This document shows positions 3,779-51,028 of a stretch of DNA of 64,000 nt, in pieces; positions within the stretch are counted from its first letter, which is position 1, and the number at the start of each line of letters is the position of its first letter. The stretch comes from Mobula hypostoma (lineage: Eukaryota). The position numbers and the translations under genes are program-made. The stretch spans positions 64,606,001-64,670,000 of the forward strand of contig NC_086108.1 in NCBI RefSeq assembly GCF_963921235.1, in the 5' to 3' direction. The notes under the pieces are model-generated. The model saw only the letters and a list, made by a program, of their open reading frames with translations, was not told the DNA's origin and did not search any database.

Positions 3779-3913
3779 TCACAAACAAGAGAAAATCTGT
3801 AGATGCTGGAAATCCAAGTAACACACACAAAATGCTGGAGGAACTCAGGAGGCCAGGCAACATCAGTGGAAAAAAGTACAGTCGACATTTTAGGCCGAAA
3901 CCCTTTGGCAGGA
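3779..3913 (-). mobile_element. Single-arm Penelope-like terminal-repeat fragment
   Basis: cacaaacaagagaaaatctgtagatgctggaaatcc...gtacagtcgacattttaggccgaaaccctttggcagga is the reverse complement of the family terminus seen at 48857-48976. Confidence 0.85.
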
Positions 3914-4096: not shown

Positions 4097-6329
4097 GTTG
4101 AAGTTGACGTGGACCATGGACCATGGATGTTGCACCCTCCACTGTTGGTGCAGTGCCATCTGAGGCTGACAAGACCAATGGAAGACTGGCAGTCTCTGTA
4201 CAGAGGTCACATCTATAAGTGGTCTCACTCTGCTGGAGATGCAGCGTTCCATTCTATGGGCCCATTTTTCTTTTGCCGCTTTCAGGATTTCTTTTCCTCA
4301 CCTGACCTAAGGTGTTCTTTCAGGGTGCTTCTCCATCTGGTGCAGTTGGCTGCATTTTACTTGATGTTGATGTCCAGTGCCTTCATGTCCTGCTTGCAAA
4401 CATCATTGTAGCACAGTTGCAGGTGGCCAGCAGTTCTCTTGCCTAAAGGCAGCACATCATAGAGGATACCTTATCCTGTATGCGGCAGACATGGCCCAGC
4501 CAGCGCAGCCTGCGCTGCCTGAGCAGGGTGACCATACTGAGGAGGGTATCACGAGAGAGAAGCTCAGCATTAGGTGCTCTCTGTCCAGGAGGTGCCCAAG
4601 ATGTGACAAAGGCACCTTAAGTAGAAGGTGTTAAGCCTTCTCTCTTACTTAACATATGTTGTCCAGGTCTCGCTGCCGTACAGCAGTGTGTCCTGGTGAC
4701 ACAAACGTTGTACACTGCCATCTTTGTTTTGACTGTAAGTTTGGAATTCTCCCAGACTCCTTTGGTGAGGCAGGCAAGAGTTGTTGCAGGCTTCCCAATG
4801 TGCTTGTCCATTTCTGTACCCAAGGAGAAGTTGTCACCCCAGGTGATGGACCCCAGGTGTGTGAACTGATGGACAACATCTAGTTCATAGTTATCAATGG
4901 TAATGACTGGTGGGGCCTCCACATCTTGTCCCAAGATGTTTCTCTTTTTCAGGCTGGTAATCAGACCAAATTCTTTGCAGGCCTGGGAGAAGCGATCTAT
5001 CAATCTCTGGAGGTGCTGTGGAGTGAGGGTTGTGACTGCTGCATCATCAGAAAACAGCATGTCTTTGATCATAGCCTCATGCACTTTGGGTTTGGCTCTT
5101 AGGTGAGCGAAGTCAAGAAGCCTGATATCTGATCTAGTGTGGAGGTAGATCCCCCTCTGTTGCATTGCCAAATACGTGCATCAGGAAAAGGGCAAAGAAG
5201 ATCCTGAAGAGCTTTGGGGTGAGAACACAGCCTTGCTTAAGCTGCTTATATTGAAGAGTCCAAAGTGCTGCCCTTGTACTACATAGTCACCTTCGTGTTG
5301 TTGTGGAAAGATTTGATCATGATCTGTAGCCTTGGTAAGCAGCCTATCTTAGAGAGGATCTGAAAGAGCCCATCTCTGCTGTACTGACCAGGTCAAATGC
5401 CTTGGTGAGATTAATCAACACAACATAGAGGACTTCTTTTGTTCTCTGCTCTTCTCCTGAAGTTGTCAGAGAAGAGAAAGTCATGTCCACAGTTGACCTT
5501 CTAGCATGGAAGCCACTCTGTGACCCTGGATAGACAGAATCAGCCAACTTCTGTAGGTAGATCAAGAAGACGCGGGCAAAGACTTTGCCAACAGCACTCA
5601 AGAGGGAGATACCCTGTAGTTGTTGCAGTCACTCCTCTCACCATTGTTTTTGTAGAGAGCAATGATCTTTGTGTCCCTCATATCCTGTGGTATGGTTCCT
5701 TCCTGCCAGCACTGACAGAGAACCTCATGCAGCAGATGCTGTAGGGTAGTCATGCAGTGCTTGATCAGGTCTGGGGGTGGCGGTGGGATCCCATCATTGC
5801 CTGGTACTTTCCCTGAGACCAAGCTGCCAATGGCTTTGCTGAGCTCCTCTAGGGTCGGCTCTGCATCTAGTTCTTCATTTTTTGGCAGGAACTCAATGGC
5901 GTTCAGGACTGAGATGGTGACTGTTTTTTCTGGAGTAGAGGTCAAAGTAATGTTCTCCCTATCTCTCCATCTGTGTGCCCCTGTCAACGATTACTTCCCC
6001 ATTAAAGGATTTGAGGGGAGCCATCGTGCTCTGAGAGAGACGAGGGCTCTTTTGATACTATTGCACATACCCTTGATATCGCCTGTCAGTGCTGCGGCCC
6101 AGATGTCTTCACTGCTGCATATAGTACTTGCCAGCACAGCGCCTGGCAGTCTGCTGAACTTTACTTCGAGCCATCCTGAGGATCTGTAGGTTCCTCTCAG
6201 TTGGCGAACACTTATTCTCGCTGGGGCAGCATGTTTGGCTTCAAAGAAGGGGGTCATCTTTTTGGATTTGGCATTGAACCAGTCATTTGTTTTTGAGGTC
6301 TTCTTCCCAAAGATAGCCAAGGTCCGCAG
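4097..6329 (-). mobile_element. RTE-clade LINE, 5'-truncated and pseudogenised (RT fragments)
   Basis: Minus-strand ORFs 5598-5987 (PQDMRDTKIIALYKNNGERSDCNNYR), 5344-5601 (GKVFARV..SQSGF..RSTVDM..LTKAFDLVS) and 4617-5171 (MLFSDDAA..FGL..SLKK..FTHLGSI) carry typical RTE RT motifs; many frameshifts. Confidence 0.9.
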
Positions 6330-9300
6330 CAAGGAAAGGAATTGTAGAACTATTGATAATTGCCTTTTATAAAATATCAGCACTTTCATATAGCATACAC
6401 AAATCATTCCAAGGGGCAGTTAAGTACCATAAATCCGTTAGATCTAATTACGTACCCTTGACCTAAAATTAATTATGCTTTCCAGACACAATCTCATTAA
6501 TATTATGATGTCATGCCTTGGAGGCATTCTTAACTGTTAGATCAAGACACTTCTGGCAGTGAAATTTGGAGAAAAAGTACAGGTGAAACATCTAATGAAA
6601 TTATAATTCAATTTTGTCTAGCTCACATGAAAGAATCCTATTCTGACTGATCACAATGGTTTATGGAAGACTGAATAAAGGATTCAAAGGCTTTAGGTTC
6701 TGGCCTGAGAGGTGCTAAAGTTAGGTAAACTTCATAATGCAAGAGATCATGGCTGTAGTTCCTTTTTTGTACAAGGATAAATGAGCATTCATACGTAGGA
6801 TACAAAGAAGGTTTATAGATGCACATTTTTAATTTTAAAAAAACAATCTTATTTATGGTATATAAATCTGCAGACAATGTAGGCGTCACTTTGGAGTTGT
6901 TGAAGAGGAAACAAACATCTAATTGGGTGATGGCTAAATCACTATTAACCATGTCATGGCATATCTTCTACTGCACATGATAAGGCTTTTTAGTATCTGC
7001 TTTGTGTGCTTATATTATCACAGAGGAGCATCAGTTAAAGAAATATGTCAGCAATATTAAATAGTAGTGCTGATAATATATTGGTCGAATTACATTATTG
7101 TATTAAATAAGTTTCTTTATGTACAACATGGATTATATCAAGTATAATCTCAACTCATTTCGACCAATGGACTGTGGATATTTTCCTAAAATCAATGTTT
7201 TTAACAGCGGAATAAATTGCTATTATTTCCATAAATACAAAACTGCTCACTAATGAGATTTGGAAATAGCCAGACGGAGACTGGTTAAAATGTGTGACAT
7301 AATTTTGAATTTGAGAGCTCTCCTGTTCTTTCAAAATGAAGAAAGGGAAGGAAACTTAACTGTATTGTGATGATTTACTGAACGCTGCAGCAAAATTACA
7401 ACTTGGGAAAACAATGAATTTGTAATCTTCTCTAATAATTATTAATTCTGGATGCAAACTTTCGTGGTGCAGTTTAGGATCTCATTGGCTTAGAAGTTGG
7501 TTTCGATGACAATAAACCACAGATAATTTTCCTCTGATTTAGTCTCACAATTTCCAAGCTTTTTTCCCCTCTAAAACCAGTGCTGGCTATTAAAAATTCT
7601 TCTATTCAAAGATTTATTTTCCTTTTATTTTAAGGATGTCCTTCCATTTCCTGTAGTCTTCTAATGTTCTTTTAAATTGTGTTGGTAGAGATTTAGTAAA
7701 TTTAAGAGCAGCAGTCTGAATTTTAATGATTTTTACAACTTTGAATATTGAATTACCTGTTTTTGAGAACCATCAATTAAATTGAATAATTAAGGAATGA
7801 GTTGGATTTAGTATTTTAAATGGATCTAAGCAAAACTATTTTTGAATCTTGTATTAGCAGTTTTTCGGGTATTTATTTTCTCCAAAAAAAGGAAGTGCCA
7901 ATAATAGCATTTCTATCCATTCTCATTGAGAAGGATTTTGTGATTGATATTGTTGTAAACATCTGTGATTATGTCCAGTAAGTGTTAAAATATCTTGGAA
8001 GATCATCCTAATCTGTTTTGGATTCTAAAATTATATTCTTAAAATGTATCACTAAATGTTGATTACAGTGACTCAGAAATCAAGAGGGTTATTTTTACTG
8101 ATGATTGCAGAAGCCTTAATGAAAATGGTAGTGTTTCTTGCTGCATTTGTCTGTAATAACGATTTTAACACTTGTACAGTTGAGTCTTATAAATTTTCGA
8201 CAATGGGAGCAAATTCCAAATGTAGTAACTTATATTACCAGGTCCCTTCTACATTTTTGGATTATGATTTTTTAAAATAACAGCATTATAAAGGGGAAAA
8301 CATTTTTAATGTATCTGGTGCACACACTGTATGAGTGAGATTCTAATACAAAGTGAACATCTGAAAGGTTACCAATAATGGACTTCATTTGGTATGAAAA
8401 TAATGAGATATAAATTTTGATACAGTGCAAAATGAATAGTATATTTGAAAAATATTAGGTCAGATGTCGGAAAATGTCTACTACTTAGGTTCTCATGTAA
8501 ACATTAAAAAGAAAAAGTAATATATTTTTATGTTCCAACATTACCTCATCTTTGATTTAACCTTTACAAAAGGAAGTTCGACCAGTTTGCCTTTCCATAT
8601 CTTCTAGCCAGGAACATAACATTGTCCTGTACTATTTGCAGTCTAGCTTTTGATCCACACTAGCAGCAGGTGTAAATCTATTGAGTAAAGTACATGCAAA
8701 ATTGTAGAGTTTGTGTTGAGATGTAACGAAGTATGGCGAAGTCACTGTATATACTGGCTAAAAGTTAGCATTATCCAGTGGTAAAAATAAAAGCAGTGAG
8801 CCTTGTTCTCCCGTCTTTGTTTTGTTTGCCAAAATGCACAGTGCAGTACTGGGCACGCCATTAAATTTCAGTTTCAGCCTTATGAATGCTAGATAAAGGG
8901 AAGCAAGATCATAGTTTTAATTTTTTTTAAAAGAAGATACATAGTAACCTTTTATGAGGTTAGATTCCCTACAATGAGCAAAGTAATTTTAGTTTCTGCT
9001 CACTGTTCATGTAGACTTTTTGGCGTACTGACGGGTACTAACTTCATAAGAGAGGAAAAAAGTACTGTACTGCCGAGCTACTGTGTTCGTGCAAAGTAAT
9101 TTTGCTTTTTAAAGTTAATGATAATTTACCAGCTGCACATCTTCAAATTTGTTTCTTTTGTGTTTAATACAAAAATAAAAAAGTCCAAAGATTGACACAT
9201 GGGAGAATGCAATTTCAGCATTCTTTAACTTTTATTTCACACTTTATTATGTCTCAGTGACATATACAGCACAAAATTAATTGTAAACAGAACAAATCAA

Positions 9301-19443: not shown

Positions 19444-19501
19444 GCTTGAGTCTGTTGGTATGCTGTGTGGGTGCCCTGTTTAAATCTGTAATTGTGTCTC
19501 T

Positions 19502-20195
19502 GTGTGTTATTTGCTGGTTATTGCTGTATGCGTGGTGGGTGAGGTCTTTGTTCAAGTTCAGACTAGCATTGACGAGTTGGAGGTGGCACTAGGGGCTGTC
19601 CATGTGGTTGGGAGAGAGAGGAAAGAGTGGTCTGATTTGGAGGTAGAGTCTACGAATAAATGTTCTAGCTCTGGCAGGCTCCGCCTGGCACTTGGGATAG
19701 TGTCCACCCCAAGAGCGGCGGAGGCGTGTGAGACGTGGGCAGAGCGGATCTCTCAGTTGTTAGATGAGTGGCGGTGCTCTGTTGAGGGAGGGCAACAGGG
19801 ATTGGTTGAAAGTTTGAGTAGGCGGGCTGGTGACGGTGTTAGAGCTGTCAGGTTCACTTACACCATAGTGACAGCTGTCAGTTATTTGAAAGAGGGGGGG
19901 AAAGTTTTCAGTGTGTCTTCTCTGGCTAGGAGGGCAGCTAAATTGCTTGTAGTGCCAGGGGGATCATTTCAGGGGATCAGCCCCTCCCTCAGTTGTTCAG
20001 CTGATCAGAGAGGGATCGAGAAACTTAGTGGAGGCCCAGTGGGGGAAAGGCTTGGGGTCTCTGGGGAAGCACGTTCCCAGCAATGTACCACTGAACTTCT
20101 GCAAGGAACAAGGAAAAGACCCTATTCCTGAAGGCTTAGAGGGACCATGCCCCAGGGTGTCGTTATGAATAGAGGGAAGCGATGCTGAAGCTATT
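19502..20195 (+). pseudogene. Degenerate PNMA-like Gypsy gag plus the start of protease; element truncated
   Basis: ORF 19502-20131 contains [37 protein letters not shown] (PNMA-type capsid); then [17 protein letters not shown] (pre-protease) ending abruptly. Confidence 0.75.
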
Positions 20196-20332: not shown

Positions 20333-21592
20333 GTCTTCTCTAATAGTTTTTTTTCTGGCCTATGTCTTTCACGGTGGGTCCAACTATGACCTGTTTATAA
20401 AACATGTTTTGGAAACTCCATGAGACCTAATCCAGTAACAACAGAGTGAAAATTGACCAATGTACAGTGGAAAATGGGGTACACTGTACTTGATTATGTT
20501 TAATACAGTATTAAATCAAATCTACTTGAATCTTGTATAGTGATACATTCATTCAGTAGCAACCCGTTAATATAGAGGATTTCTTTGCTTACCAAATATG
20601 AGCTCTCCCTATCACTGTGGTACTATGAGTATTATCTTTTAATAGACAGTCATACTCTGTTCTGAAAATATAGTGAATATTTTAAGTTCCTATACAGGGG
20701 GTGGGATAGTAAAAGCAACCTTGAAGCACATGTGTATTTTTGGCAACATAATGGAATGGAAAACTACATGCTAATGGAAAAACATTTTAAATAACAGTGA
20801 AGAAACAAAGCTGTTGTGCTACATCGGCATATTGATGTAAAAAAGATTAACATTGAAAATCGATACACCTTACTGTAATAGCAACTTATGTCATTGTTTT
20901 TCTTTTTATGTAATGAGCTGGATTGTCCTGTGTTTGACTCTGCCCAAACTTGCAGCCTGTGGTGCCTCTTAGCCCACACTAACCTGGTTTAGATACGGGG
21001 TTCAGACTGAGCTGAACCCCCGCACCTGGATTCCTCCAACAAAACATTGTGCGTCCCATCTCCAGGAAAGCACAGATGGCCTTTTGACACTTGCAGCTGC
21101 TTTTTGACACCTTTGAACCACATGTAAATGACACTGATAATAGAAAGTTTAAACAGAGGTCAGATAGTCTCAAATAATGGTAGAAGTGTAAGCTTAATTA
21201 AAACATTATAGAAATTAGTTGAAGACATTGAGATAAAGAGAAATAAATAATATGCAGAGTCAAGGTCAGTGCCTGCACTCAAACCATTGAGGTAATGCTT
21301 CTTTTGCCTGGCTTGGCTCTGTGATCTGCTACTGAACTCACCCCATTCATGCTGCAACCAAATTAAAAATCATCTGCGTAGATAGAAGCCTACACTTGTA
21401 AGTACATAGCAAAATGGATTGGCTGCTATCAAAAATAAGCCCGGACATTTGCAAATTTAATTAGAAAATATTCTGAACTGAATATAGTTAAGAGTACTGA
21501 CACAAACATGGTCAACAGTGTGTTGTTGAACTGGTATAACCTGCTGCAATTAAAGTATTTGAGATCTTGCAAAGAGCTATATTACCGTGGAT

Positions 21593-21753
21593 ATGAGGAA
21601 ATCTGCAGATGCTGGAATTTCAAGCAACACACATAAAGTTGCTGGTGAACGCAGCAGGCCAGGCAGCATCTATTGGAAGAGGTACAGTCGACGTTTCGGG
21701 CTGAGACCCTTTGTCAGGTCCTGATGAAGGGTCTCGAACTGAAATGTCGACTG
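21593..21753. mobile_element. Short fold-back Penelope-derived element with a 15-bp TSD
   Basis: TSD tatattaccgtggat at 21578-21592 and 21754-21768; inversion centre near 21719; two damaged hammerhead cores in opposite orientation. Confidence 0.9.
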
Positions 21754-23611
21754 TATATTACCGTGGATTATCATTTTACATTGGCTAGCCGGAATGAATA
21801 GTGGAATCGTTGTTTTGATTGGCTTCTAAGCAAACTAATAATACTTAAAAGATGAACTATTATAAAAAGTCATTCTAATAATTGCTGATTGGACTTTTAC
21901 ATGGCTAATTTTAAGGAAATTAAAGCTGCATTATTACCTTTGTTTGATTCTATAGTCCAGTTCCAAAACCATCAAAATATGTCATTTAAAGCCTCCTGTA
22001 AATGGCATTCTGTCACTATTTAATAAATGGAACTCTTATGTGACATTTATACTGCTGCTGGAATGAAGGCAATTTTGTTTCAATCTTAAACCTTTGTTGC
22101 TAAAACTTTCCAACCTTTTCATTTCCATGCTTTAATGAAACTGTCTTTCTGCTCTTCAAAAATTATTATCCATATTTCATAGAAACTGTATTTGAAAATT
22201 TTGACTGTAAGAATTACCATTTCGCATTTAAAGATTGGGTATGGGGGTTATGATCAAATGGATCTTGACGTTTCATGAGTTCACTGAAGAGATAAATAGT
22301 TTTCTTTTAAATAATAAATCTTAATGCTTTCCATTAGAATTTCCCCCTCTTCACCCAATAATCTTCATTTCCAATCATGAATGGCCTTAGGTTCAGCTTA
22401 ATCCAGCCAGATCTGGTTTCAGGCCTAAATTGTGCCGAAGATTGTCAGGAGGAGTCCGTAGTCTAGACTCAGTTAGTTTACAATTAGTGAGAGTTTCTAG
22501 TTTGTTGCTACTCAGGTCTGAAACTCTGTTAGTTTGTGAATGTAGTCCTACATGCCTTTATCTTGTTACTTTGATCTGTTTACAATGTGTCTTTCTTTCC
22601 TTATTCTGGAGTAGTACGCTTCAGAATTTTTACATCGCTGTGTGAAAAGGAAATATCTAGCCCTGTATGAGGTGTAACATGGGCATAATTATGAAACTAC
22701 AGCAAGCTTCCAGCTATTTAAACAATGACTACAATGAATTTACTGTTTGAAGTGGTATAAACTGTGAAGAACATGCTACAAATACACGTGAAAATAATTT
22801 AAAATATTTTATTGCTTTTTTCTATTAGACTCCTTTTTAAAAATAAACCTTCATCACCGTAAATAATTCTAGTTAGGTTTCCAATGTCAGTTTAATAGTT
22901 AAATTTATAGCTCTGTGAGCTGGTAAGCTATGCTAGGCTAGACACTTCTAGGAAGATTCTCAGTCTATGATAAATTAATCTAGCTCAACTGCCATGGCAT
23001 TAGGGACAAAATAGCTTGCACCAACACACACAGTGTTGCTCAGTTAAAATATAAATTATCCCATTATGTTCATTCTTGTTTTGCATTGTCAGAACTGGAC
23101 GCTTTTGGGCTGGATACCCCTTGCTGAATAGCTTGCAGCACCCTTTATTCTGATTCATTAGCAATAAACACCTGTGGGGAAACAATGAGCATGGGAGGCA
23201 TCGAAAATTCATGCCCATCTCATATTTCAGATGAAAAGGCAGAAGGAAGGTGCTGTTGAAGAACCTCATTGAATTGAGGTGGTGCCCCCTGTAAATGGTG
23301 TACTCTCAGCAATGCCACTCGTGGCAGAGGCCATGGATTTTAGGGTAGTAGACAGAGTGCCATTCAGATGGTCTGTTTTGTTTTGATGGTACACATTTCT
23401 AGTTCTTTCATTAGAGCTATATTCACTTTTCAAGGAAAATAATGTTTTGATATTACTGAAGTGCAACTCATTAATGGTGGAAAGGCATCAGGGAAACAGA
23501 AAGTGAACCATTCTTTAATGAATATTCAGCATCTGACGTGCTTATAATGACATTATTTATTTGGCTCCAGTAAAATTTTGATATGCAGTGGGGTCCATGA
23601 TATTAATGGGA

Positions 23612-27845: not shown

Positions 27846-28009
27846 AAGACAATCCTGATTTTTTTTTCTTATTGGCAGCCACTTGATTTCCTATCATTAA
27901 TACCTCCTGACAACTGCCTACCCCCCTCCCTCAGCCCGTCCTTTTGTCCAGCTCTGAGCCTGCCTGAACCCCTCCGTGTTCCTTTACATGCTCATTTTCT
28001 TTCCCAGTA

Positions 28010-28293
28010 CGCAAACACGAGGAAATCTGCAGATGCTGAAATTTCAAGCAACGCACATATAAGTTGCTGGTGAACGCAGCAGGCCAGGCAGCATCTCTGG
28101 GAAGAGGTATAGTTGACGTTTCGGGCCGAAACTCTTCGCCAGGACTAACTGAAAGAACAGCTAGTAACAGATCTTACTAGCTCTTCTTTCAGTTAGTCCT
28201 GACGAAGGGTCTTGGCCCGAAACGTCGACTGTATCTCTTCCTAGAGATGCTGCCTGGCCTGCTGCATTCACCAGCAACTTTTATGTGTGTTGC
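28010..28293. mobile_element. Fold-back Penelope-derived element (~285 bp) with a 13-bp TSD
   Basis: TSD ttctttcccagta (27997-28009) / ttctttcgcagta (28294-28306); inverted arms centred on agatct ~28169-28174. Confidence 0.92.
28195..28230 (+). ncRNA. Minimal type I hammerhead ribozyme motif (core intact)
   Basis: agtc-CTGACGA-a-ggg(tcttgg)ccc-GAAA-cg-TC^-gact: stem I agtc/gact, stem II ggg/ccc, palindromic ACGT stem III, GUC triplet; predicted cut after 28226. Confidence 0.75.
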
Positions 28294-29304
28294 TTCTTTC
28301 GCAGTAACCTGACCTCACTGCCTCTCCCTACAAATCTAATCTCAGTTTCACAAATATGTTTGTGAGTTTGGTTGGGACTGAGGCGCAACTGAAATTAGCA
28401 GTGAAGATGCATGAATAAATATTTTTAGGTCGAAAACTGTGCAATAAATCTATGATAATCTGCTATCCATTTGTCGGAACTCTTGATGGTTTGGCATCTG
28501 GATCACTCATTAGCCCAGAATGTAGTAGGGGATCCACAGTGTAAGTGGAATGTGGGGCAGAGCAGGCAGTTTGGAGTATAGTCAGGGCTGGGGTCCTGAT
28601 TTAAGTGTATTTGGGTATTAATATGATGAATTCCAACAGTTTCAAGAATCCTACTGTAGTATCCAAACAGGACCGCACAAACTGTTGTTGAGCAAATAGG
28701 AAGTATTCATTTCGTCACTTGACCCTGGATGCGCATTGGAAATAATTAGCTATTTGTAACAGATGCCACTTGTTAGCGTTCAGAATGAAAAGTGCATTTT
28801 GTTGCAAGTTCGATTATTTTGATAAGTTTGCCCAGTGAATATTCCCAAGGATTGCAAGATGCTTTAATTACAGATCTCCCAAAGTGAAGTATTAATTAGC
28901 AGAAATAACCTGCTGAATTTAGTTCTGAAGAAAAGGGAGGGTGAACTCCTTTCTTTAGTTTATCTATCTCAGACTGATAATTTTCGTTTTCTTGTCACCT
29001 GAGAACTCTCAAAGCAAATATTTCTGAATCGAGGTAGTTTTGTGGCAGCATGCAATTCATTAACATTATAGCTATAAAACTGTCAAGAACAGTGGATGTC
29101 CATCCCTCATAACGAGACTGGATTTATACTCAGACCTCGGGGGCAGAAGAACTAGTATCATAATTCAAGTCTTAAATCAATTCACTGGGTAGTCCTTTTG
29201 AATTTTTTTCCTGGCTTGCTGGTGTTGGGAAAAATATTCTAGCACCAAACAGTGCATTAGAATCTTTACTCCATCCACCACACTGAATGATTTGCTCCTT
29301 TCTC

Positions 29305-29382
29305 ATAATGCACTTTTTACTCATGAAAATTAATCTATTTGTTATAATGCACTTTTTACTCATGAAAATTAATCTATTTGTT
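29305..29382. repeat. Perfect 39-bp tandem duplication
   Basis: ataatgcactttttactcatgaaaattaatctatttgtt at 29305-29343 and 29344-29382. Confidence 0.97.
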
Positions 29383-29706
29383 ACCAGGTCATAGTGAAAA
29401 CAATTCTACAGCTTGAAATTAAATAAAACTGAAGATAGTATTTTTAATTACAAATGAGCAAATTTGGTTCCTCTTACCTTGGCTCAATGATTCTAAGAAA
29501 GCCTGAACCAGTGTTCAGGGTAAGGAGGCAAAGCAAAGACAGGACCAAAATAGAAAATGTGATGTCTAGTATTTTGAACAGTTCTGAACATAAAAATTGT
29601 GTAGTGTAGTTTAGTTTAAGTTTGTGTCTTGACTTGACAACAATTGGTTTATTAAATTTAGCTCACCTTGCCCCTCTCAGTGAAAACTCATATTGCAATA
29701 GAACCT

Positions 29707-29933
29707 CAAACAACAGGAATTCTGCAGATGCTGGAAATTCAAGCAACACACATCAAAGTTGCTGGTGAATGCAGCAGGCCAGGCAGCATCTCTAGGAAGA
29801 GGTACAGTCGACGTTAGTAACTCTTCCTTCAGTTAGTCCTGACGAAGGGTCTCGGCCTGAAACGTGGACTGTACCTCTTCCTAGAGATGCTGCCTGGCCT
29901 GCTGCGTTCACCAGCAACTTTGATGTGTGTTGC
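29707..29933. mobile_element. Fold-back Penelope-derived element with a 14-bp TSD
   Basis: TSD ttgcaatagaacct (29693-29706) / ttgcaataaaacct (29934-29947); the hammerhead core at 29835-29870 has GTG in place of GTC. Confidence 0.92.
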
Positions 29934-31469
29934 TTGCAATAAAACCTGGCTGTCTCTACCTGGAAATATGGCAAAGCTGAGAAACAATTGATTTTGGGGC
30001 TGAACTTTTTGTCTTAGGACAGTTGATGTGGGACCACAGTGGCTTAATTTATTTTAGGGCATATTTAAAAAAAGGAGGGGCCTCTTAGGCACTTTGTTTG
30101 CCACAGAGCATGAGAATCCATGGCATGCCATGACCTCAGAAGGGTCAGCAGTATTAAAGCGCAGGAGCAGGAAGGGCCGGAAGATTTTCCTTTTTTGAAG
30201 GTAAAAGGGAAGAATGTTGAACTCAATACTTTGTCATGAAGAGAGATAAGTTCCAAATTAATGGATGCCGGAAATTTAGAATTATTCATTGATGGTACTC
30301 ATGTTTATCATTTATCTCTTTTATCAGCTGTAAAATGTTGCCAAGAATTGGGGAAACAGTGTGTGCAGGTGATACAGGGTGTTGACTGGACTGAGGTATC
30401 ATTTTTCAATCTAGTTGGTGAGGAGGAGTACAATTGTGGGATAGGATGCAGTGGGGCGATTGGAGTACTGATATAAAGAGTTGAGGTGGAAGTATGCTTT
30501 ATGGTAAGGAAATGGTTATTAGTGGCTTAGGTAAGAGGAATTATGAGACGATTATGTGTTTGTCCGTCCTAATCTGCCTCTTGTGAGCAGGATTGGCAAA
30601 GTACTTACATTATATGTAACAGAATATTGTTAGTATTTATATTCATATGTTCTAAACAACAAAACATTTTAAAAATAAAATGAATGTTTACATATATTCA
30701 ATAAGCTAAAAATAAAGGTTTAACAGGACAGCACCTATAAGACAGAAAATCAATAGCTCTGAAATCAGCAGCTCTGTTTTTCTTTGAGCCTTAAACCGTG
30801 TCCAGTGCTAATGGAAGAAATCTGTGTTATGTTACTATGAAATTTAAAATGTTGTTGCATCTTTTACAGGCAAGAATATCCAGAGAAAATTTTAATATAG
30901 TAAATTTTAGGGAGAAGACGAAGGCTCCTTTTTGAACTTCTATGCACTCAGATCTGCGCAAGAGTACTCTGACAGAGGAAACTCAGTACTTACACAAACT
31001 TAAAAGGGCTTAAGTTTTGAGTTCATAAAGGATTGTTTTAAAGTTTCATGTAGATTATGCAAATTTCCTCACTTGAAGATAAAAAGTAATTACTTCTGGG
31101 GTCTCCTATTCTCAAACATTGTTATGCAATAAAGATCTTATTATCTGATCTTGAAACAGGCAAGCAACTTTGCATTATTTTCATTGAATATCTCACAGAT
31201 TTCAGATTCCTGCAAAGTCAGTTAGTTGTTGAATGCAGAACTGTTCATTCCTAAAAACTCCGAGCAGATAAGCGAGTGTATTTTCCAAATTGCTGGAGAG
31301 ATGTTGCAAGGTTGCCTTACAATATTAACACTGAAATAAGAATGCTTAGTCTTTGGTATATAGCTTTAACTAAATCAGTAATTTGGAATGTGGCTGCATA
31401 CATATTTTCATTGGAAGCTGAGTTATGCTGTCATTGCAATATACAAGTGAACATTACCCAAATTATTTG

Positions 31470-34258: not shown

Positions 34259-34988
34259 TAACTGTCTCATCGATCTTCGCTGTGGAAGACACTAGCAATA
34301 TTGTGGAAGTTCCAAATGTCAGGTGTCATGAAGTGAGTAAAGTTATCCTTTCTAGAGAGAAGGGTTTTGGGAAACTGAAAGGTCTGAAGGTAGATAAGTC
34401 ACCTGGACCAGATGGTGCACACTCCAGGGGTCTGAAAGAGATGGCCGAAGAGACTGTGGGGGCATTAGTAATGATCTTTCAGGAATCACTAGAATCTGGA
34501 ATGGTTCCAGAAGACTGGAAAATTGCAAAAGTCATTCCACTATTCAAGAAGGGAGATAGTCCATGAGCCAGTAGGGTTGGTAGGTACCATCTGAGGAGAA
34601 TAATGCTCATAGTGATTTTTGGCAAGGTGTACATCTCTAGACTTAGAAAATATGTGATAGCATTGCACCAGTGGTAGCCTTATTACTTCAGATAAGTAAT
34701 CACTTTTTGTATATATTCCATATTAACATCAATACAGCAGAAAATGTTATCCCTCCCCCCCAAAAGGTGAAAAACCTCATTTGGAGAGGTTTCTGGAGTT
34801 TTATCAATGTCATGATATTTTCCATATTGTTGTATCAAATCAAAACAATCTTAAGCTTTTGTCATAGCATATAGTATTACAGTACAATAATTCAAATGTG
34901 GGGTTCCACGTGGCCATAACCTAGGCCCCATTTGGTTGTAAAATGAATATATTTAATCAAAGACTAATTTCCATACTTTCATAACCTA

Positions 34989-36396
34989 TTAATAATCATA
35001 ATAATTTTCCACATCTTCCACATCTTCATCTGAACTTTCCACACTCTCAGATGTGGATGCCTGGTTCTCACAGTCTGCCAGTCTACGCATGTCAGTATAC
35101 CTGAGGCCATTTGCAACACACATACATCTTGGGAGTGAACATTTTTTTGGACAGTTACGGGCCAGTAGATCCAGGATGGCATCGGGTGCTGGCTGGCCTT
35201 CCATCCAGTGCACCACCAACTGTTCAGCTTCCTCTTCTCTCTCCATCTTCCATCCTCTGCCAACAGGGCTTGGCACTTGTGGGTCCTTCTCCAAACATCT
35301 TCTCCATATACCAGCATGGTAGTTGGCTCGCTGTACATGTTTTGTTAAGCAGTCCTTGCATAGTGTGAGTTGATGACTTTCGATTTCACCTTTTTTGGCA
35401 CAGAAAAGCTAATACCTGAGCTCATTGACCTTGGTGGTCGATGCTTTTGGGGCATGCGACAGACATGTAAATGCCTCCGGTTTGTCCATCAGTTCTGGGG
35501 AGAGGTCTCATTCCTGATTCAACTCTAAGAATGTGTCCTGAGTTTCCCTGTTGCTGGTCAGAAGTTTTAGGGCACTTGTCTTCCCTTTGCCTGCAAAAGC
35601 ACTTACAGTGTCACATCCTGTATATGTGTGCAACCCAATGAGAGCCCTACAAACCTCTATGACAACAGTGGCAGCAACCTTCCTGATGTCTACAAGCCTT
35701 GTATGGGTTCTGGTGCCACACTTCTGGAACAATGGGGCCTCAATCTTGTCACAAAATGCTAAAGACATGATAAAGACATCTGTGTCTTCTGAGCAGATCA
35801 CTTCAGTTTGGTATCCCTCTCTTGTGGCATGGGCAGCATGGAGAAGTAGGCAGGCATCCGCTTCTTGTTGACACTGAAGAGCTGACACCTCCTCACTGTC
35901 TTGAGATGTGATTCTATAACATTTGTCATTCACAGTTGCATACAGAATCTTCTCCTGTAGCTTTGCTCTGTACTCCGCCTTCCTCCATTCATGGACTATG
36001 AAGCCAATGAGACTATTTTTGTTACTGACTTTGGTCAGGAAGTTCCTCCACTGCCTCACCATCTGTGTGCCTATGATACCTTGCAACTCATGACCAGTCT
36101 CTTCACCCTGTAGAGATCGTTCACTATTCTTGATAGAGTTCTCCTTGTATGTGTCGATCACAACATCTATTCTGCTACTCTGACTGCCTTCCCTCAGAGC
36201 CATACCCAGAATTGTTGTGGCAACATCTCTGAAAGTAACTTGATCACCTTTCACTCTTTGGACCAAGTTCATACCATCAACCACTGTAGCAGAGTTTCCT
36301 GGGAGTTACTCTTCTACTGCTACATTTTTCTGCAAATTTGTGGCTAAAGTAGCTTTATTTGTCTTTCTCAGCAATCCTTCTTCTGTGGACAGGGCC
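34989..36396 (-). pseudogene. C-terminal part of the transposon protein: XPG/FEN1-like PIN nuclease domain plus degenerate Cys-rich tail
   Basis: LRKTNKA, VDGM, VVIDTY, QEADACLLLHA, SEDTDV, GCDTVSAFAGKGK (H3TH-like) in ORF 35508-36284; P...GW and CPKKC...CMC..NGL..TDM..C in ORF 34989-35294; stops and frameshifts present. Confidence 0.8.
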
Positions 36397-37375
36397 TGAT
36401 ATGTGATAAAGTCTGGTCTATGATCTTGTCGAAATTGGTTGCCTTGGCCCTCCAAACTTTGAGTTCCCTCTGTAGAGTTTGATTTTCCAAGACAACGTCC
36501 CTTAATGATACACTTTCAGGAACCATTAACAATTTTCCTTTGTCATCTGGAAATATGTCTACTGAATTGCTTAGCTCCGATTCCAGTTTCCTACGAATGT
36601 GCTTCTATGTAGAATCTTGCAGGAGTGTAACTCCACCAGATAGCATGAAAGATTCAAGTTTCGTGACCAAAGAAGTGACTTGTACAATCATCTTGTTGGG
36701 TATGATATCAGTTCTGATATACTCGAAAAGGTCTTTATAGGCTTCCCTTTCAATCCTTTTATACAGTTGGTCACCATCTGTTTCATCATCATTCTCTTTG
36801 TACTCAGGTTCCTTCTTCTTGATTCTGGTAGAATCCTTATAGCATGAAACATGATAGTGGGCCTCTGCAGCAGCTATGTCTCTGCTTGTTACGGCTAGAA
36901 TGTTTTCATCTTCCTTTTGGGTTGCATATTCCTGTAGTGTTTGGTCAGCTCTGAGTTGTACAGCTTGTGTAAGCTTTTCACGTGACTTGGAGCCCTTCAG
37001 AAATTTCACCTTATTACAAAAAATGCAGATTTGATCATACATCCTTGCTTCTGATGAAGATCTCCTACTTGGCTTTTTTGATGTACAGGTATTCTCACCA
37101 GTTTCATCAGTAATGCTTTCCTTGGCTTTCCTTTTCAGAGTCTGTAAGTCTCTCTTCATGGTGAAGTGGCTTCAGCATTTTTGGTGATAGCAGATTCTTG
37201 AGACTTTTTCTCTTAGTTCTTTAGCAACATCTGAAATAGGGGCATAGTTTCTCACTTTGGCTGCTTCAAGTAATGTTTTCCAGGATTCATAGTCTTGAGG
37301 ACTAACTAAATGGTCATCATCTTTTGATGTTTTCCGATGCTTCTTAATAGATTCTTTGTGCTTATGGCTCTCCAT
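36397..37375 (-). pseudogene. N-terminal part of the transposon protein (Cys/His motifs YHQKC, CIFC..HYHVSC)
   Basis: ORFs 37172-37375 and 36605-37159; reading continues to ..DQTLSHIR and then jumps to the C-terminal block. Confidence 0.7.
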
Positions 37376-41585: not shown

Positions 41586-43821
41586 ATGTCGAACTTTATT
41601 CATTTTTGCTATAAAGCCTAAGAACCGCTCATTGGAGCATATTATGTAAGTCATTAGTGAATGCTGAAAATTTTTGGAAGGCAGAAACTTTATTGTTGCT
41701 TTCTTCTTTTTGAAGGCTGTGGAAAAGACAATTGGATGAGCTTTATTCAGGTATTTTATATCTCTTCCAAGAATGTAGACTCACTATTCAGAGTAATGAA
41801 TTAATCGAGTACTAAGGGACGCAGTTTTAAAAATTTGTCATAGCTTTCAAGAAGATATTACATTAATTTTAGTTTGTTTAGAACATCATGATCTGGGATA
41901 AAATGTGAGTGAGTGGAATCAATCAGTGCCTTCGAAGAGGAGTTGTGCAGGCACATGAGAGAGTAGAATACGCTGGGTCTATCATGAACTTGCATAGAAT
42001 TGAATAGCCAAGTAGAATTCTGTGTCATAACAAATCTTTGAAAGACTATTTGAACTTTTTAGTCATTACAATGTAGCTTTTCCATTTTTAATGTCTGTAA
42101 ATGAACCTCACCAGGTTCCTAGTTGAAAAAGAGAGCCTTTATCTTATTACTGTCAAAGCTCAGGTTTGGTTTTGGATCACGCATCAGCAGAATTCAGTGA
42201 CAACAGAAGAAATAAAGATCATTATAGACCATCGTTCAGCAGGTTTCATGAAATTTGTCTGGTCTAGCCATAGTGATGATGAAGTTAAATTTAGAAAGAA
42301 AAAAGGTGGAAAAGAGACAAATGAACAGGTAAAGGAATATCCTATTTCCTTTAAATATTTTATGTTTCCTTTAACTTGTCACTGCATCATAGCATCTATG
42401 TTTCATGGCCAAAAAGTTCACATGTTCCTTCAAAGATTTTTTATGGCATCGGAGAAAGCCATTCATCCACAAGTCTATGCCAGCTAATGGCTTTACTCTG
42501 TCGAGAACCGGTCCAATTCCCTTTTGAAGGCACAGATTGATTCTGCACTTTCAAACAGTTAATGTGAGAAGCCTCTCTGCATCCCGTTCTCTCACACTAC
42601 ACAGATAATAATGCTACTTCTTCCACATTTAGAGACTGTGGAGAAAGACTGATTCAGCCTTGTCTGTGAATGATGTCACTGGCTTGGCAAATTGCTCTGG
42701 AATCAGCTGCCTGCAGATCAAGTGTGGTCAAAGCCACCCAGAGTGGAAAATGTCCGTCACAATTTATGAATATTGTGTCTGTTACTTGGCATATCAACTA
42801 AAAAGCCAAAAAGCATAATCTGTGGTTTTACTGTTTCTTTTGGATGGAACCACAGCAAACAGGCCTGTAATCTAATTCATCTCATTTTGTGTTTTGCTTG
42901 AAGACGTGTTGCTTTTGTCAGCCGTGGGATGTGCCACAGGGCCTGCATTTTCTCTCCAAGGACATTTTGTGGGATGGCTCTGGCAGACTTAGTTACATTG
43001 TAAATTTAGGGTTATTTAACACAAATAGAAGATTTGTTAAGTTTTATTGCAGATGGCCATCTGATCAACAACTATAACGCTCAAAATAATGAGACAAATT
43101 GCTGTGAAGATTTGTACCCAAGTCCTAACAAAATCGAAAACAAACACAGGTTACTGATGTATCATTTATAACTTAGCATTTTTCATTAATATCAATGTTA
43201 CAATTTTAATCAATATACTTTCAAAATGTTTTTCCTTTTGATGATACCAATTTGGTAAAATTAACTGAAAATTATGTAAATATTTTTACAAGGAGTATAA
43301 GTATACTCAACTTCTTATCATGACATAGATTATTTGTGCATTACTTCTTGATCGAGCTAGAAAGTTTTATTTTCTTGCTATTAAACGGAAACGCTGTCAG
43401 TTTTAACTCACTCTGTAGACCTTGGTCTCTGAAGGGATGCCCTTATATAGAGTTTATGTGGATATCAATAAATTAGACTATGATGGAAGAAAATGTGAAG
43501 CTAATAAGTTGCAACTTTAATATATAATAAAACACCTGGAGAATAATGGGTAATAATTATCACAGCATTAATAGTAGAATTATTAGATGCAGTCTGTAAC
43601 CAACTAAAATAAATTAAGAAAGGCAGGGTCAATTTAATTGTATCACATTTTGATTTATTAAAAATAGATAGTGTCCTTGTGTATGACTCAGACTGCTTGT
43701 ATGAGAACACATTCATTCAAGAAAAGGATTAGGAATGAAAAATGGACTTTTTGAATGAAGGAGACTAAAAATTAAATCTAACATTTAATTGATGTGCTGT
43801 TATAACAATCTAAAATTAATT

Positions 43822-44600
43822 CAATAACACAATCACTAACCTCATCAATTCTGGAGTTCTTCCATCCACTGCCACCATCCTCACAGTTTCCATGGCCCAC
43901 ACTGCTCATTCCTACATCCTACCCAAGATCCACAAACCTGACTGTGTGGGTAGACCTATTGGTTGTGCCTGCTGCTGCCCAACTGAACTCATGCTCATTC
44001 ACGTCAACTCTATTTTGACTCCCTTGGTTCAGTCCCTTCCCACCTACATATCCATGACACGTCACATGACCTCAATCTCTTCAATCACTTTAAGTTCCTT
44101 GGTCCTGGTTGCCTCATCTTCACTACGGATGTCTAGTCCCTATTCACAATTATCTCACATCAGGAAAACCTTGCTCTCTGCTTCTTTCTGGACAACAGAC
44201 CTAACCAGTTCCCCTCTACCACCAATCTCCTCCTTCTGGCAGAAATGGTCCTCAACCTCAACAATTTCTCTTTCAACTCCTCTCAGTTTCTCCAAACCCA
44301 AGTGGTAGCCATGGGCGCCTGCATGGGCCCCAGCTATGTCTGCCATTTTCTCAGCTATGTAGATCAGTCCATGTTCCAAACCTTCAGCGGTAACTCTCCA
44401 CAACACTTTTTATACTACATCGAAGATTGCATTGGTGCTGCTTCCTGAACCCATGCTGAGGTCTTACAATTTTATCAACTATGCCTCTAACTTACACTGC
44501 ACCCTCAGATTTATTTGCTTAATCTCTGACTCATTTCTCCCATTTCTTGAACTCTCTGATTCCATCTCTGGAAATAATCTGTCTACTGGTATCTTTTATC
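43822..44600 (+). mobile_element. Older Penelope-like RT fragment
   Basis: ILPKIHKPDCVGRPI, LNLNNFSFNSSQFLQTQVVAMGACMGPSY, YYIEDCIG; homologous to 49752-50140. Confidence 0.88.
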
Positions 44601-46250
44601 CTCATAACTTTAAAACTTACTTCAACCAACACAATCTTATAAAGCATTATCAAGGCCAAGCTATTCCACAAGTCTTCAATATGAGTTTTGTCATTTTCAA
44701 ATTTTAACATAAAGCCAAATTTACCCCTGTGTTAAAGTTTCTTTGCTTCACTGTCCCAAGTACTACTCCAATTTCACTAACAGAGACAAAAGAATTTTGG
44801 AGAGTTACTCTCGTTCTTACTAAGTATGCTGCCTTAAAAACTAGGTTGTGATAAATGACATAAGATGGAAAGTAACTGCGTATTTGTCTCAGTAGCACAA
44901 TTCACCACTCAGAATAAGAGGGTGTACCTTCACATATTTGACTATAGAGGCTTTCCTGCTTCCAATTTTACCCTTTAATCAAGTGTAATTGAATTTATAA
45001 TTTATAGTTTGGGTGAGTAGTTGGAAAATCTCTTTCCTGTATTGAAGTGTGAAAGCTGCAACTGGGGAATCCATTTCCATTACTCTCCTCGGCACCAACC
45101 AATCAAAAAATCCTACATCTTGATTAGTGCAAATTTACTTTGTTCTTTTCAATGCCATGTCAACTTTATAATCAAACATAAAACTGAGTTTGCCCAGCTG
45201 CCCTTGTATTAGTCAAAGTAATTATGAATCTCAGCTGATGGTCAAAATGACTATCTTCTTTGGCCAGTCCATCCTGCTCTCTTTCTGAAGGAATGGCGGG
45301 AGAGTTGGCAACTTAGAGACTGTAATAATTTGAGCAAAATCAAACAAAAACATGTATATTGTAAAGAAATCTGACAATGCTGTGAAATGTCTAGTTATTC
45401 CAAACATTACTCGCAAGAAAACTTCTTGGACCAATGTTGGTTATCCTTATCTGCACACATTAAGGCAGACTTAGAAATACATCAAGATTTGTAGTCCTCA
45501 AGTATTTTTTTTAAAACGAGCCCAAAACATTTATGATAACCAGCCTTTAAAACTTTTAGCAATATTTATTGTTAATTATTCCTAAATGTGTTTAGCTTTT
45601 GCTCAGTTTCTGAAGGTAAATTTATTTGGAGTGCTTTTAATCTCAGTCCTTTTACAACGTGAACTGAGAGCTTTAGGATGAGCATATGTGCCAGATGTTA
45701 ATGTCAAGGATTTGAACTTACAAAGTGATTTGTTGTGTAACTAGATGTAGTCACTGTACATTTTAGTCAAACTAGCCAAGTAATAAGCCTGAAACGAGCA
45801 CACTTTTCTACCGCCTGCATAAACTGATTAATTAACAGTTTTAAGATAATTCTGCCAGCTAGTCTGTTTTCTCAGTCAAAAGGCAAAGTTTGCCTTTTAT
45901 GTATTCTCCAATAATGCCATCAAAACGATACCTGCAGACCAGACCATTGCTCAGTGGCCCGTGTGTGTATTAAAACTAATCATGGTGAAGTTGGTAACCC
46001 TAAATCTTTAACTTCCAGATCAAGACAATTATATTTGTTAAAGATGTAATTTACTGGTGAAGAACTTCATTATAAAATTGGAAAATTGTTTTAGGATTTT
46101 AAATATTGTGCCATTCTGGATCAGAGATTGCCCAGGCCATGTTATCTTTAGTGAATTTCTATCATCATAATATACATCTAATAGAAAGTGTTAAATATTC
46201 AAATCAGAATCTTATTAGTGGAGCTTCTGCTGAGAATGTTGCACTTATGA

Positions 46251-48071: not shown

Positions 48072-48760
48072 AACTTTCCAGAATAAAAGTGTTCAGGAGA
48101 AGCACTGAAATCCTTAGGCTACGATTATATTACCATCACGAAAGGCACTTGCATTATACTTACATTAATCACAATAGAGAGTTTGGAAGGGAAGAATCTT
48201 AGGTTGATATAAGTTTAATCTCTGATTTGATTCAGTTTCATGATATTTCCCTTTAAAAATGCAATTCTAATGGTCTTCATTGGCAACATAAATGCAAAAT
48301 GTTCCTACCTAGTCTCAAGACATGAATAATACTGTATGGTTGTTATGTTCTGACAGCAGTCATTTAACTGACAAACTGCGGCTGCATTAGGGTAACACTT
48401 CTTTCCTTATTGTTCTCCAATATTATCTTGGGAATACTGTAATACTTTTAAGACTTATTTTCTTTCATGATTGGAAAGGTATGCTTTATTCAACAATGCT
48501 GCTTTTTAGCCAATCTTCTTCTACAAAGGGGAGTTGGAATTATAAAAATTCTCCTTAGTATTGAAGGAGCTTGCTGAATACACTTAATTTCTTAAGGATG
48601 TTTATTTCTCAGCTAAAGAAGACAGAAACAGATTTGCATATACCAGTGTAGATTTTCCTCCTAAAATACAATAAGCCTCTATTTGTCTTTGAATCATTTT
48701 GTCCTATCACCTTAATTGTAAATGTTATAGATTTCCTGGCACCCACAATAGGATGCATTT

Positions 48761-48976
48761 ACACACACAAAATGCTGGAGGAGCTCAGCAAGCCAGGCAG
48801 CATCTATGGAAAAAAGTACAACCGATGTTTCAGGCCAAAGCCCTTCAGCAGGATGTTTTGGCCCGAAACGTGGACTGTACTTCTTTCCATAGATGCTGCC
48901 TGCTCTCTTGAGTTCCTCCAGTATTTTATGTGTGTTGCTCGGATTTCCAGCATCTGCAGATTTTCTCTTGTTTGTG
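48761..48976. mobile_element. Fold-back Penelope-derived element (second subfamily) with a 13-bp TSD
   Basis: TSD ataggatgcattt (48748-48760) / ataggatgcagtt (48977-48989); inverted arms around ~48853. Confidence 0.88.
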
Positions 48977-49138
48977 ATAGGATGCAGTTGTAGCTTTATT
49001 TGAAGATTGCCTGTTTTAAGATTGCTATTGAAATTAATGCAAACACGAGGAATTCTGCAGATGCTGGAAATTCAATCAACACACATCAAAGTTGCTGGTG
49101 AACGCAGCAGGCCAGGCAGCACCTCTAGGAAGAGGTAC

Positions 49139-49174
49139 AGTCGACGTTTCGGGCCGAGACCCTTCGTCAGGACT
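49139..49174 (-). ncRNA. Minimal type I hammerhead ribozyme motif (core intact)
   Basis: Reverse complement reads agtc-CTGACGA-a-ggg(tctcgg)ccc-GAAA-cg-TC^-gact. The partner copy at 51337-51372 (+) has AAAA in place of GAAA. Confidence 0.75.
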
Positions 49175-49751
49175 AACTGAAGGAAGAGCTAGTAAGAGAT
49201 TTGAAAGTGGGAAGGGGAGGGGGAGATCCAAAATGTTGGGAGAAGACAGGAGGGGGAAGAATGGAGCCAAGAGCTGGACAGGTGATTGGCAAAAGGGATA
49301 TGAGAGGATCATGGGACAGGAGGCCCAGGGAGAAGGAAAAGGGGGAGGGGGGAAAACCCAGAGGATTGGCAAGGGGTATAGTCAGAGGGACAGAGGGAGA
49401 AAGAGAGAAAGAATGTGTGTATATAAATAAATAACAGATGGGGTACGAGGGGGAGGTGGGGCATTAGCAGAAGATTGAGAAGTCAATGTTCATGCCATCA
49501 GGTTGGAGGCTACCCAGACGGAATGTAAGGTGTTGTTCCTCCAACCTGAGTGTGGCTTCATCTTTACAGTAGAGGAGGCCGTGGGTAGACATATCAGAAT
49601 GGGAATGGGATGTGGAGTTAAAATGTGTGGCCACTGGGAGATCCTGCTTTCTCTGGCGGACAGAGTATAGGTGTTCAGCAAAATGATCTCCCAGTCTGCG
49701 TCGGGTCTCGCCAATATATAGAAGGCCACATTGGGAGCACCGGACGCAGTA

Positions 49752-51028
49752 ATCAGTTCCCCTCTACCACCACTCTGCCCCGTCTAGTGGAATTAGTCCT
49801 TACTCTTAATAATTTCTCCTTTGGCTCCTCCCACTTCCTCCAAACTAAAGGTGTAGTTATGGGCACCCATATGGGTCCTAGCTGTACCTGCCTTTTTGTT
49901 GGCTTTGTGGAACAATCTATGTTCCAAACCTTTTCTGGTATCTGCCCCCCACTTTTCCTTCGCTACATCGACGACTGCATTGGCGCTGCTTCCTGCACAC
50001 ATGCTGAGCTCGTTGACTCCATTAACTTTGTCTCCAACTTTCACCCTGCCCTCAAGTTTACCTAGTCCATTTCCGACACCTCCCTCCCCTTTCTAGATCT
50101 TTCTGTCTCTATCTCTGGAGACAGCTTATCTACTGATGTCTACTATAAGCCTACTGACTCTCACAGCTATCTGGACTATTCCTCTTCTCACTCTGTCTCT
50201 TGCAAAAATGCCATCCCCTTCTTGCACTTCCTCCGTCTCCGCCGCATCTGCTCTCAGGATGAGGCTTTTCATTCCAGGACGAGGGAGATGTCCTTTTTTA
50301 AAGAAAGGGGCTTCCCTTCCTCCACCATCAACTCTGCTCTCAAACGCATCTCCCCCATTTCACGTACATCTGCTCTCACTCCATCCTCATGCCGCCCCAC
50401 TAGGAATAGGGTTCCCCTTGTCCTCACTTACCACCCCACCAGCCTCTGGGTCCAACATATTATTCTCCGTGACTTCCGCCACCTCCAATGGGATCCCACC
50501 ACTAAGCACATCTTTCCACCCACCCCCCCCCCCCGCTTTCTGCAGGGATAGCTCTCTACACGACTCCCTTGTCCATTCGACCCTCCCATCCCACCCCACT
50601 GATCTCCCTCCTGGCACCTATCCTTGTAAGCAGAACAAGTGCTACACATGCCCTCACACTTCCTCCCTTACCACCATTCAGGGCCCCAGACAGTCCTTCC
50701 AGGTGAGGCGACTCTTCACCTGTGAGTTGGCTGGGGTGATATACTGCGTCTGGTGCTCCCGATGTGGTCTTCTATATATTGGCGAGACTCGACGCAGACT
50801 GGGAGATCGTTTTGCTGAACACCTACGCTCTGTCCGCAGAGAAAGCAGGATCTCCCAGTGGCCACACATTTTAATTCTACATCCTATTCCCATTTTGATA
50901 TGTCAATCCACGGCCTCCTCTACTGTAAAGATGAAGCCACACTCTGGTTGGAGGAACAACACCTTGTATTCCATCTGGGTAGCCTCCAACCTGATGGCAT
51001 GAACATTGACTTCTCAAACTTCCGCTAA
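49752..51028 (+). pseudogene. Penelope-like RT (C-terminal half) plus GIY-YIG endonuclease, frameshifted
   Basis: LTLNNFSF..QTKGVVMGTHMGPS..LRYIDDCIG; FLRLRRICS..F..RGFP; CKQNKCYTC; GVIYCVWCSRCGLLYIGETRRRLGDRFAEH. Confidence 0.93.

Follow-up and report, generated by a model that had tools for sequence, protein, structure and literature searches.

Five insertions of one layout lie in the window, the 64-kb stretch of Mobula hypostoma DNA that was analyzed (table 1). Four of them, starting at 21593, 28010, 29707, and 48761, had been described in the initial annotation as made only of a folded-back Penelope terminal repeat, and all four were recovered with their boundaries: each has inverted arms, a junction of its own, a target duplication of 13–15 nt, and one arm with a tail of about 36 nt. 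The fifth, 2.4 kb long and absent from the first reading, has the identical layout with coding sequence inside and is referred to here as the long copy. The arms were recovered as inverted repeats by a search that made no prior assumption about them. The duplications, 13, 13, 14, 14, and 15 nt long across the five insertions and either exact or with a single mismatch, are well above the chance level, as drawing 5,000 random boundary pairs within the window gave only 4 that reached 13 nt with one mismatch under the same rule. The predicted fold of 28010–28293 reached −218 kcal/mol, compared with −82 for shuffled sequences (z −24). The statement that one arm extends about 35 nt further than the other was borne out as the tail of about 36 nt, except in 21593–21753, where the outer end of the tail-less arm falls about 93 nt short and the arm contains the hammerhead and little else. 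An assembly artefact was rejected, as the arms differ at 3–20% of positions and duplications bound them.

Table 1. Features of the five insertions in the window; d gives the distance in nt inward from the element's tail end
Feature	Position	Strand	Details
161-nt insertion	21593-21753		Tail-bearing arm 21593-21718 (d6-132), tail-less arm 21718-21753 (d134-99)
Its target duplication	21578-21592 / 21754-21768		15 nt, exact
284-nt insertion	28010-28293		
Its tail-bearing arm	28010-28172	-	Element 3' end, d1-161
Its tail-less arm	28172-28293	+	d158-37; 1 nt common to both arms at the junction
Its target duplication	27997-28009 / 28294-28306		13 nt, 1 mismatch
Minimal type I hammerhead, core intact	28195-28230	+	4-5-bp stem I, 4-bp stem II, loopless palindromic stem III; definition of PMC4209133
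Hammerhead copy in the tail-bearing arm	28111-28146	-	Broken at A6
227-nt insertion	29707-29933		Tail-bearing arm 29707-29815 (d1-109), tail-less arm 29814-29933 (d156-37)
Its target duplication	29693-29706 / 29934-29947		14 nt, 1 mismatch
216-nt insertion	48761-48976		Older subfamily, opposite orientation; tail-less arm 48761-48853 (d40-133), tail-bearing arm 48855-48976 (d about 120-1)
Its target duplication	48748-48760 / 48977-48989		13 nt, 1 mismatch
Long copy	49040-51433		
Its inverted tail-bearing arm	49040-49751	-	d1-712: endonuclease frame end, 3' untranslated region, intact hammerhead, tail
Second fully intact hammerhead	49139-49174	-	All core and stem features present
Its 5'-truncated sense body without tail	49752-51433	+	1.68 kb, d39 to about 1,720
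Reverse-transcriptase C-terminal half and thumb	about 49754-50548	+	Within the sense body
CX4CX2C linker and GIY-YIG endonuclease	about 50538-51028	+	Within the sense body
Hammerhead of the sense body	51337-51372	+	Broken at G12
Its target duplication	49026-49039 / 51434-51447		14 nt, exact

The long copy, which adjoins the fourth short element at sixty bases, was used to characterize the parent element. Its coding frames are broken by a stop and by frameshifts, and its Pfam matches (RVT_1, E 0.0029; GIY-YIG, E 0.0006) both fell below the curated cut-offs; however, it is collinear with two relatives (P0007 and P0016) that each carry both domains, and a whale-shark protein aligns along its body (tblastn E 5e-150). 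The endonuclease piece was matched by 18 of 66 candidate proteins, the best from Hypanus sabinus (88%) and Mobula hypostoma (84%), followed by sharks. The order of domains is that of canonical endonuclease-bearing Penelope-like elements, a reverse transcriptase followed by a C-terminal GIY-YIG domain, and the GIY and YIG boxes flank two cysteines (C73 and C76) that are identical in 6/6 aligned rows; the CCHH histidines fall around a frameshift. The hallmarks of Penelope insertion, namely an inverted 5'-truncated copy, a one-sided tail, and a target duplication, were present in 5/5 insertions. A CX4CX2C linker was found in the window copy and in 4/5 relatives. In the available text of PMC8557442, a CX2-5CxxC linker marks Neptune and Nematis and is missing from Penelope and Poseidon, and the accessible part of a vertebrate survey names Neptune and Poseidon as the only Penelope-like clades found. 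Because the linker is restricted to Neptune and Nematis and vertebrates yielded only Neptune and Poseidon, the parent is likely a Neptune-type Penelope-like element, judging from the sequence.

We then related the short elements to the long copy. Compared with its arms, the young short arms differ at 1–15 of 97–143 non-CpG columns, and one short arm at 2 of 26; given this small number of differences, 2–15 of such 97–143 columns against the tail-bearing arm alone, the three young short elements were assigned to the subfamily of the long copy. The element at 48761–48976, about 75–80% alike, belongs to an older subfamily together with a single tail-bearing arm at 3782–3913. Since a long coding copy has the identical layout, the short elements can be regarded as the short end of one series. 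Private changes common to both arms of one element and absent from the other young arms numbered one in the 28010 element and zero in three others, too few to show a common template.

Several other elements were observed in the window. The single arm at 3782–3913 ends at the hammerhead 5' edge, and its final bases recur just after it as a 9-nt direct repeat; neither a partner arm nor a target duplication was found for it, and for four single arms no target duplications were found within 6 kb. Older, decayed related Penelope-like pieces, 61–73% alike, lie at 121–235, 51528–52015, 59765–60536, and 43820–44626, comprising two terminal arms with endonuclease ends, one short arm, and one reverse-transcriptase fragment; Penelope-like insertions total about ten in the 64 kb. 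A 215-codon open frame at 19484–20131 (+), whose PNMA (gag-like) match is weak and falls below the cut-off (E 0.00018), is probably the remnant of an LTR retroelement. A cluster of long open frames at 34979–37171 (−; 139, 265, and 188 codons), one of them with cysteine clusters, matched no Pfam family above cut-off and looks like a decayed transposon of unnamed kind. Fragments of other reverse-transcriptase elements lie at 4617–6419 (−; RVT_1, E 0.006) and 61573–62097 (+; RVT_1, E 5.8e-06).

The geometry of the arms is informative about how the insertions arose, with counts that rest on the five insertions readable whole in this one 64-kb window. As the initial annotation had noted, the inversion point changes from one insertion to the next: 5/5 window junctions are distinct, with 1–2 nt common to both arms at four of them. 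In every insertion a tail-bearing arm is paired with a tail-less one (a 1-in-32 outcome under random choice by the strands), and the outer ends adjoin the target duplication, in 4/5 on two preferred ends described below. The tail-less arm extends inward as far as the other or further in 4/5 insertions, as well as in the joint 49085/49173 from public assemblies. Two of the junctions are near-symmetric (21593, d132/134; 28010, d161/158), with inner ends 2–3 nt apart. Six bases within 29814–29821, where the arms of the 227-nt element meet, are the reverse complement of those expected, which may reflect a micro-inversion, templated filler, or two point changes.

Element ends and joints were further examined in public sequencing data. 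Part of the long copy was present in 20/24 sequencing runs, and the runs presumed to be RNA shared 14–45% of its words, a figure of word content that is not evidence of expression. Contigs fitted to the tail-bearing arm of the long copy numbered 201,225 in assembly X1 and 203,445 in assembly X5, either of which may come from the organism of the window itself. Loose ends with A/T-rich flanks were found before 49041 in 300 contigs (X5) and before 49077 in 420 (X1) and 359 (X5), which places two preferred 3' ends 36 nt apart; the inner one is uncertain by 1–2 nt because the reference carries a private change at 49076. Further loose-end clusters lie before 49137 and behind 49174, the two hammerhead edges, and the letters beyond 49137 are element-like. 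Summed depth in X1, which is not copy number, was 9–11 million over 49088–49183 versus 1.4–6.4 million over 49208–49735, a drop that fits many arms ending near d135–170. Inner ends also gather at the hammerhead 5' edge, both in the window arms ending at 21718, 48853, and 3913 (d133–135) and in three listed joints at 49173–49174. This clustering at 49172–49174 could mark an RNA 5' end or a reverse-transcriptase stop, with subfamily divergence at the same place as a confounding factor. Matches to a 19-nt pattern in one viral and 114 metagenome loci were set aside as chance, none of them matching the element over more than 32 nt.

The joint data consist of the 15 joints listed out of 317, and all their counts are minimum values. 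Among these 15, four are opposite-strand joints, of which the three inner ones were seen in at least 1–2 contigs per assembly. Two inner joints (49085/49173 and 49121/49159) were shared by X1 and X5, where their depth was several-fold that of single pieces, so some junctions may have been copied; the former occurs in at least 2 contigs of each assembly at depths of 73 and 317, versus about 8–11 and 23–64 for single pieces. The best-supported joint listed, 49041/49077, connects the tail end directly to the opposite-strand tail-less end, without intervening target DNA (at least 18 contigs in X1 and at least 8 in X5, each at about single-piece depth), and may represent a chain of fold-back units, a template jump, a circle junction, or an insertion into a tail. 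Identical junctions recurring at different loci had been suggested as the mark of independent mobilization; among the 15 of 317 joints listed from the two assemblies there was no high-copy fixed junction (maximum 18 contigs) and none of the window junctions.

The intact hammerhead announced for the plus strand of the 28010 element was upheld: its core boxes are intact, an extra A precedes stem II, and C17 is at 28226, with the cut predicted after 28226. The accompanying claim that the motif is mutated or truncated elsewhere fell with the second intact hammerhead, on the minus strand of the long copy, and with the copy at 21721 (+), which keeps all core letters with a weakened stem II. Both 28199 (+) and 49170 (−) show the core boxes, the A before stem II, G10.1–C11.1, a palindromic stem III, and a short stem I. 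Core letters are complete in 3/9 hammerhead copies of the five insertions (21721, 28199, and 49170), and the other six are altered in the core, in many cases at a CpG, or interrupted by the junction; in the tail-less arm of 29707–29933, C17 is changed to G. These changes look like neutral decay after insertion. A function of the hammerhead in parent elements is indirectly supported, because other subfamilies seem to keep the motif while differing around it. In the predicted monomer fold, stems I and II form and the core is mispaired. Scoring with hammerhead models, which had been proposed as a check, gave no support: Rfam returned no hammerhead match at gathering score in the 64-kb window, and the hammerhead family was absent from the 11 weak matches in 28000–30000. 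This result may be expected for a minimal form without a looped stem III. Rfam microRNA matches were rejected as generic hairpin hits below gathering score.

Taken together, we proposed, with a probability of about 0.8, that an abundant Neptune-type Penelope-like retrotransposon gave rise to the short hairpins, as dead-on-arrival insertions with heavy 5' truncation that the protein of the parent generated separately each time. De novo formation by an inversion-generating integration, which the initial annotation had favored, is supported by the five differing junctions and by the 2.4-kb coding copy of identical layout. For the inversion itself, within this reading, we lean somewhat toward priming on both target strands. 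The GIY-YIG endonuclease would nick the two strands 13–15 nt apart, and each target 3' end would prime reverse transcription, one at the end of the RNA tail and the other at a site 36 nt inside. Both cDNAs would copy one 3' region and stop early, often at the hammerhead 5' edge or about 25 nt beyond, and would then be joined head to head via 1–2 shared nucleotides. Because both starts are fixed and close, the cDNAs would overlap and a palindrome would result. The outer cDNA might follow and displace the inner one on a single RNA, which would fit the inward reach of the tail-less arm, seen in small numbers. The start sites lie in GU-rich sense RNA; a conserved RNA structure around the two sites was not supported (z −1.73; two-sided change in 2/11 pairs). 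The hammerhead would be a passenger from the terminal repeat of the parent that decays after insertion, and a transcript across a whole insertion would leave it paired with its own antisense copy and inactive. The inverted layout as such is unsurprising, since it has already been published for Penelope-like elements. Twin priming, reportedly first proposed for L1 in 2001, was not found as an explanation of the Penelope inversion in a literature search by titles and abstract starts in which subscription journals were thinly covered.

A route in which one cDNA loops back to serve as its own template, the tail being gained or lost on one side through second priming or endonuclease cutting, would lead to the same element identity and differs from two-strand priming only in the chemistry of the inversion. 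Self-priming has been proposed from palindromes at inverted junctions (PMC3846280), and in the accessible text of PMC8557442 the tail is ascribed to endonuclease resolution of an intermediate. The two near-symmetric junctions are in line with it, as is the inner end of the tail-bearing arm, which lies at or inside that of the other arm in 4/5 insertions, like a fold-back copy. However, a self-copied cDNA requires one arm to nest in the other unless the tail is trimmed or added later, and it therefore fails in three of five insertions: the arms are not nested in 29707, 48761, or the long copy, where the 36-nt tail of the shorter arm is missing from the longer one. The description "folded back on itself" thus stands for the shape of the insertions and not, in these three, for their synthesis. 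A loop of about 1 kb would also be needed in the long copy, and both outer ends coincide with the two preferred ends beside the target duplication. We consider self-priming unlikely on this evidence, while keeping it as the first alternative.

Long inverted repeats are unstable, and the short forms could have arisen by later central deletion of longer inverted-repeat insertions like the 2.4-kb copy, a hairpin-driven process that the short microhomologies and near-symmetric centers would fit. Against such a collapse, the inner ends cluster at the hammerhead 5' edge and the depth steps down there, a pattern that suggests a property of the RNA itself; the long copy retains its 700-nt arms despite differences at 34 of about 670 positions; and other Penelope-like elements make very short insertions directly, with a median of 128 bp in the available part of PMC9977147. 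We regard this origin as improbable.

It is similarly doubtful that, with two-strand priming as the normal route of the element, some fold-back units are re-mobilized through a circular or concatemeric intermediate as a low-copy, protein-free form. This reading was raised by the joint of tail end to tail-less end, which resembles a circle junction or a head-to-tail chain, and by the few inner junctions that recur in both organisms; if true, such mobility would be a missing step between Penelope-like elements and retrozymes.

The alternative offered in the initial annotation, an independent non-autonomous hairpin retroelement, fared poorly and is very unlikely. Under this reading, transcripts of a fold-back unit would be cleaved by their own hammerhead and the protein of the parent would insert them again as a whole. 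It was judged here at high copy, low-copy recurrence being compatible with the joint data. In its favor are the joints found repeatedly in X1 and X5 (49085/49173, 49121/49159, and the fusion of the tail end with the tail-less end); a terminal repeat suffices for mobilization in trans in a rotifer (PMC3846280), and non-autonomous derivatives are described in the accessible texts of PMC8557442 and 10.64898/2026.07.22.740005. Yet the window insertions have no junction in common, nor does any appear among the 15 of 317 joints listed; these reach at most 18 contigs out of about 200,000 per assembly, the inner ones 1–2 contigs each. The full core is kept in 3/8 arms or fewer, copying of an entire unit would imply a single start site and renewed truncation, and the hammerhead would be sequestered in the predicted −218 kcal/mol hairpin. 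Nor was a fixed-junction consensus unit, as in a SINE or MITE, found in the window or at high copy among those 15 joints. A MITE or DNA transposon was rejected on the asymmetric ends (one arm overhangs by 36 nt or more), the variable duplication of 13–15 nt, and the reverse-transcriptase-bearing parent, and a non-LTR retrozyme on the arrangement of the window copies, all of them single arms or head-to-head pairs.

We concluded that the short fold-back insertions are the known Penelope layout at its smallest size and no new kind of mobile element; minimal hammerheads and an inverted pseudo-LTR with a tail, named in the initial annotation as Penelope features, are indeed published, as are such hammerheads on opposite strands. 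Their use would be as test material for the origin of the inverted copy and its one-sided tail, a question that is still open in the available texts of PMC8557442 and PMC11167929, and the ray genome offers very many such junctions, of a length that can be read from end to end. Should the elements be located in transcribed DNA, they would also supply near-perfect double-stranded RNA in large amounts.

Penelope-like insertions typically have an inverted truncated copy beside the 5' end and a 30–40-bp tail at one end (PMC8557442, PMC3846280, and PMC8969392, as far as their accessible texts describe). The insertions analyzed here share with these canonical elements the 5' truncation, head-to-head copy, one-sided tail, target duplication, terminal-repeat hammerhead, and order of reverse transcriptase and GIY-YIG domain. 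They differ in that 4/5 consist of two terminal arms only, 161–284 nt in total, and in duplications of 13–15 nt rather than the 8–10 nt described for rotifer Penelope-like copies; neither a full-length nor a direct-tandem copy was found in the 64-kb window. A 2014 study described pairs of minimal hammerheads in Schistosoma, located on opposite strands at spacings of 100–700 bp, and published minimal hammerheads are described as having low activity and only as multimers or dimers (PMC4209133). The motifs of the window agree with these in the core boxes, the extra A, G10.1–C11.1, the 4–5-bp stem I, and the loopless palindromic stem III, but have a stem II of 4 rather than 7–8 bp, lie as two copies 30–110 nt apart, and are known here from sequence. 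Non-LTR retrozymes are likewise short, non-coding, derived from Penelope terminal repeats, and equipped with a type I hammerhead (10.64898/2026.07.22.740005, available part); in contrast, they form head-to-tail tandems with hammerheads of one polarity, whereas the window elements are single head-to-head pairs with variable junctions.

The closest parallels to the proposed mechanism come from two systems. The Poseidon protein of Anolis carolinensis cuts and extends both target strands in vitro, and two reverse-transcription start sites bound the tail; a dimer is predicted, and in the accessible text hammerhead cleavage is not needed; the hammerhead of this relative cleaves weakly with the protein of the element (PMC11167929). 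The window elements are similar in the two start sites bounding the tail and in A/T-rich targets, but belong to another clade, and their start region is GU-rich in the sense RNA rather than AC-rich; the available part of PMC11167929 does not invoke two-strand priming for the inverted copy. In L1 twin priming, as in the mechanism proposed here, two nicks prime cDNAs that are joined head to head by microhomology between target duplications (10.1101/2024.08.27.596794). Unlike L1, the elements in the window have no poly(A), and their starts are fixed 36 nt apart, so that the two cDNAs overlap almost wholly and give a palindrome, whereas in L1 the two cDNAs are reported to overlap in a minority (17%). 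Moreover, the inverted outcome, a side reaction in L1, appears to be the usual one here, as it was found in all five bounded insertions.
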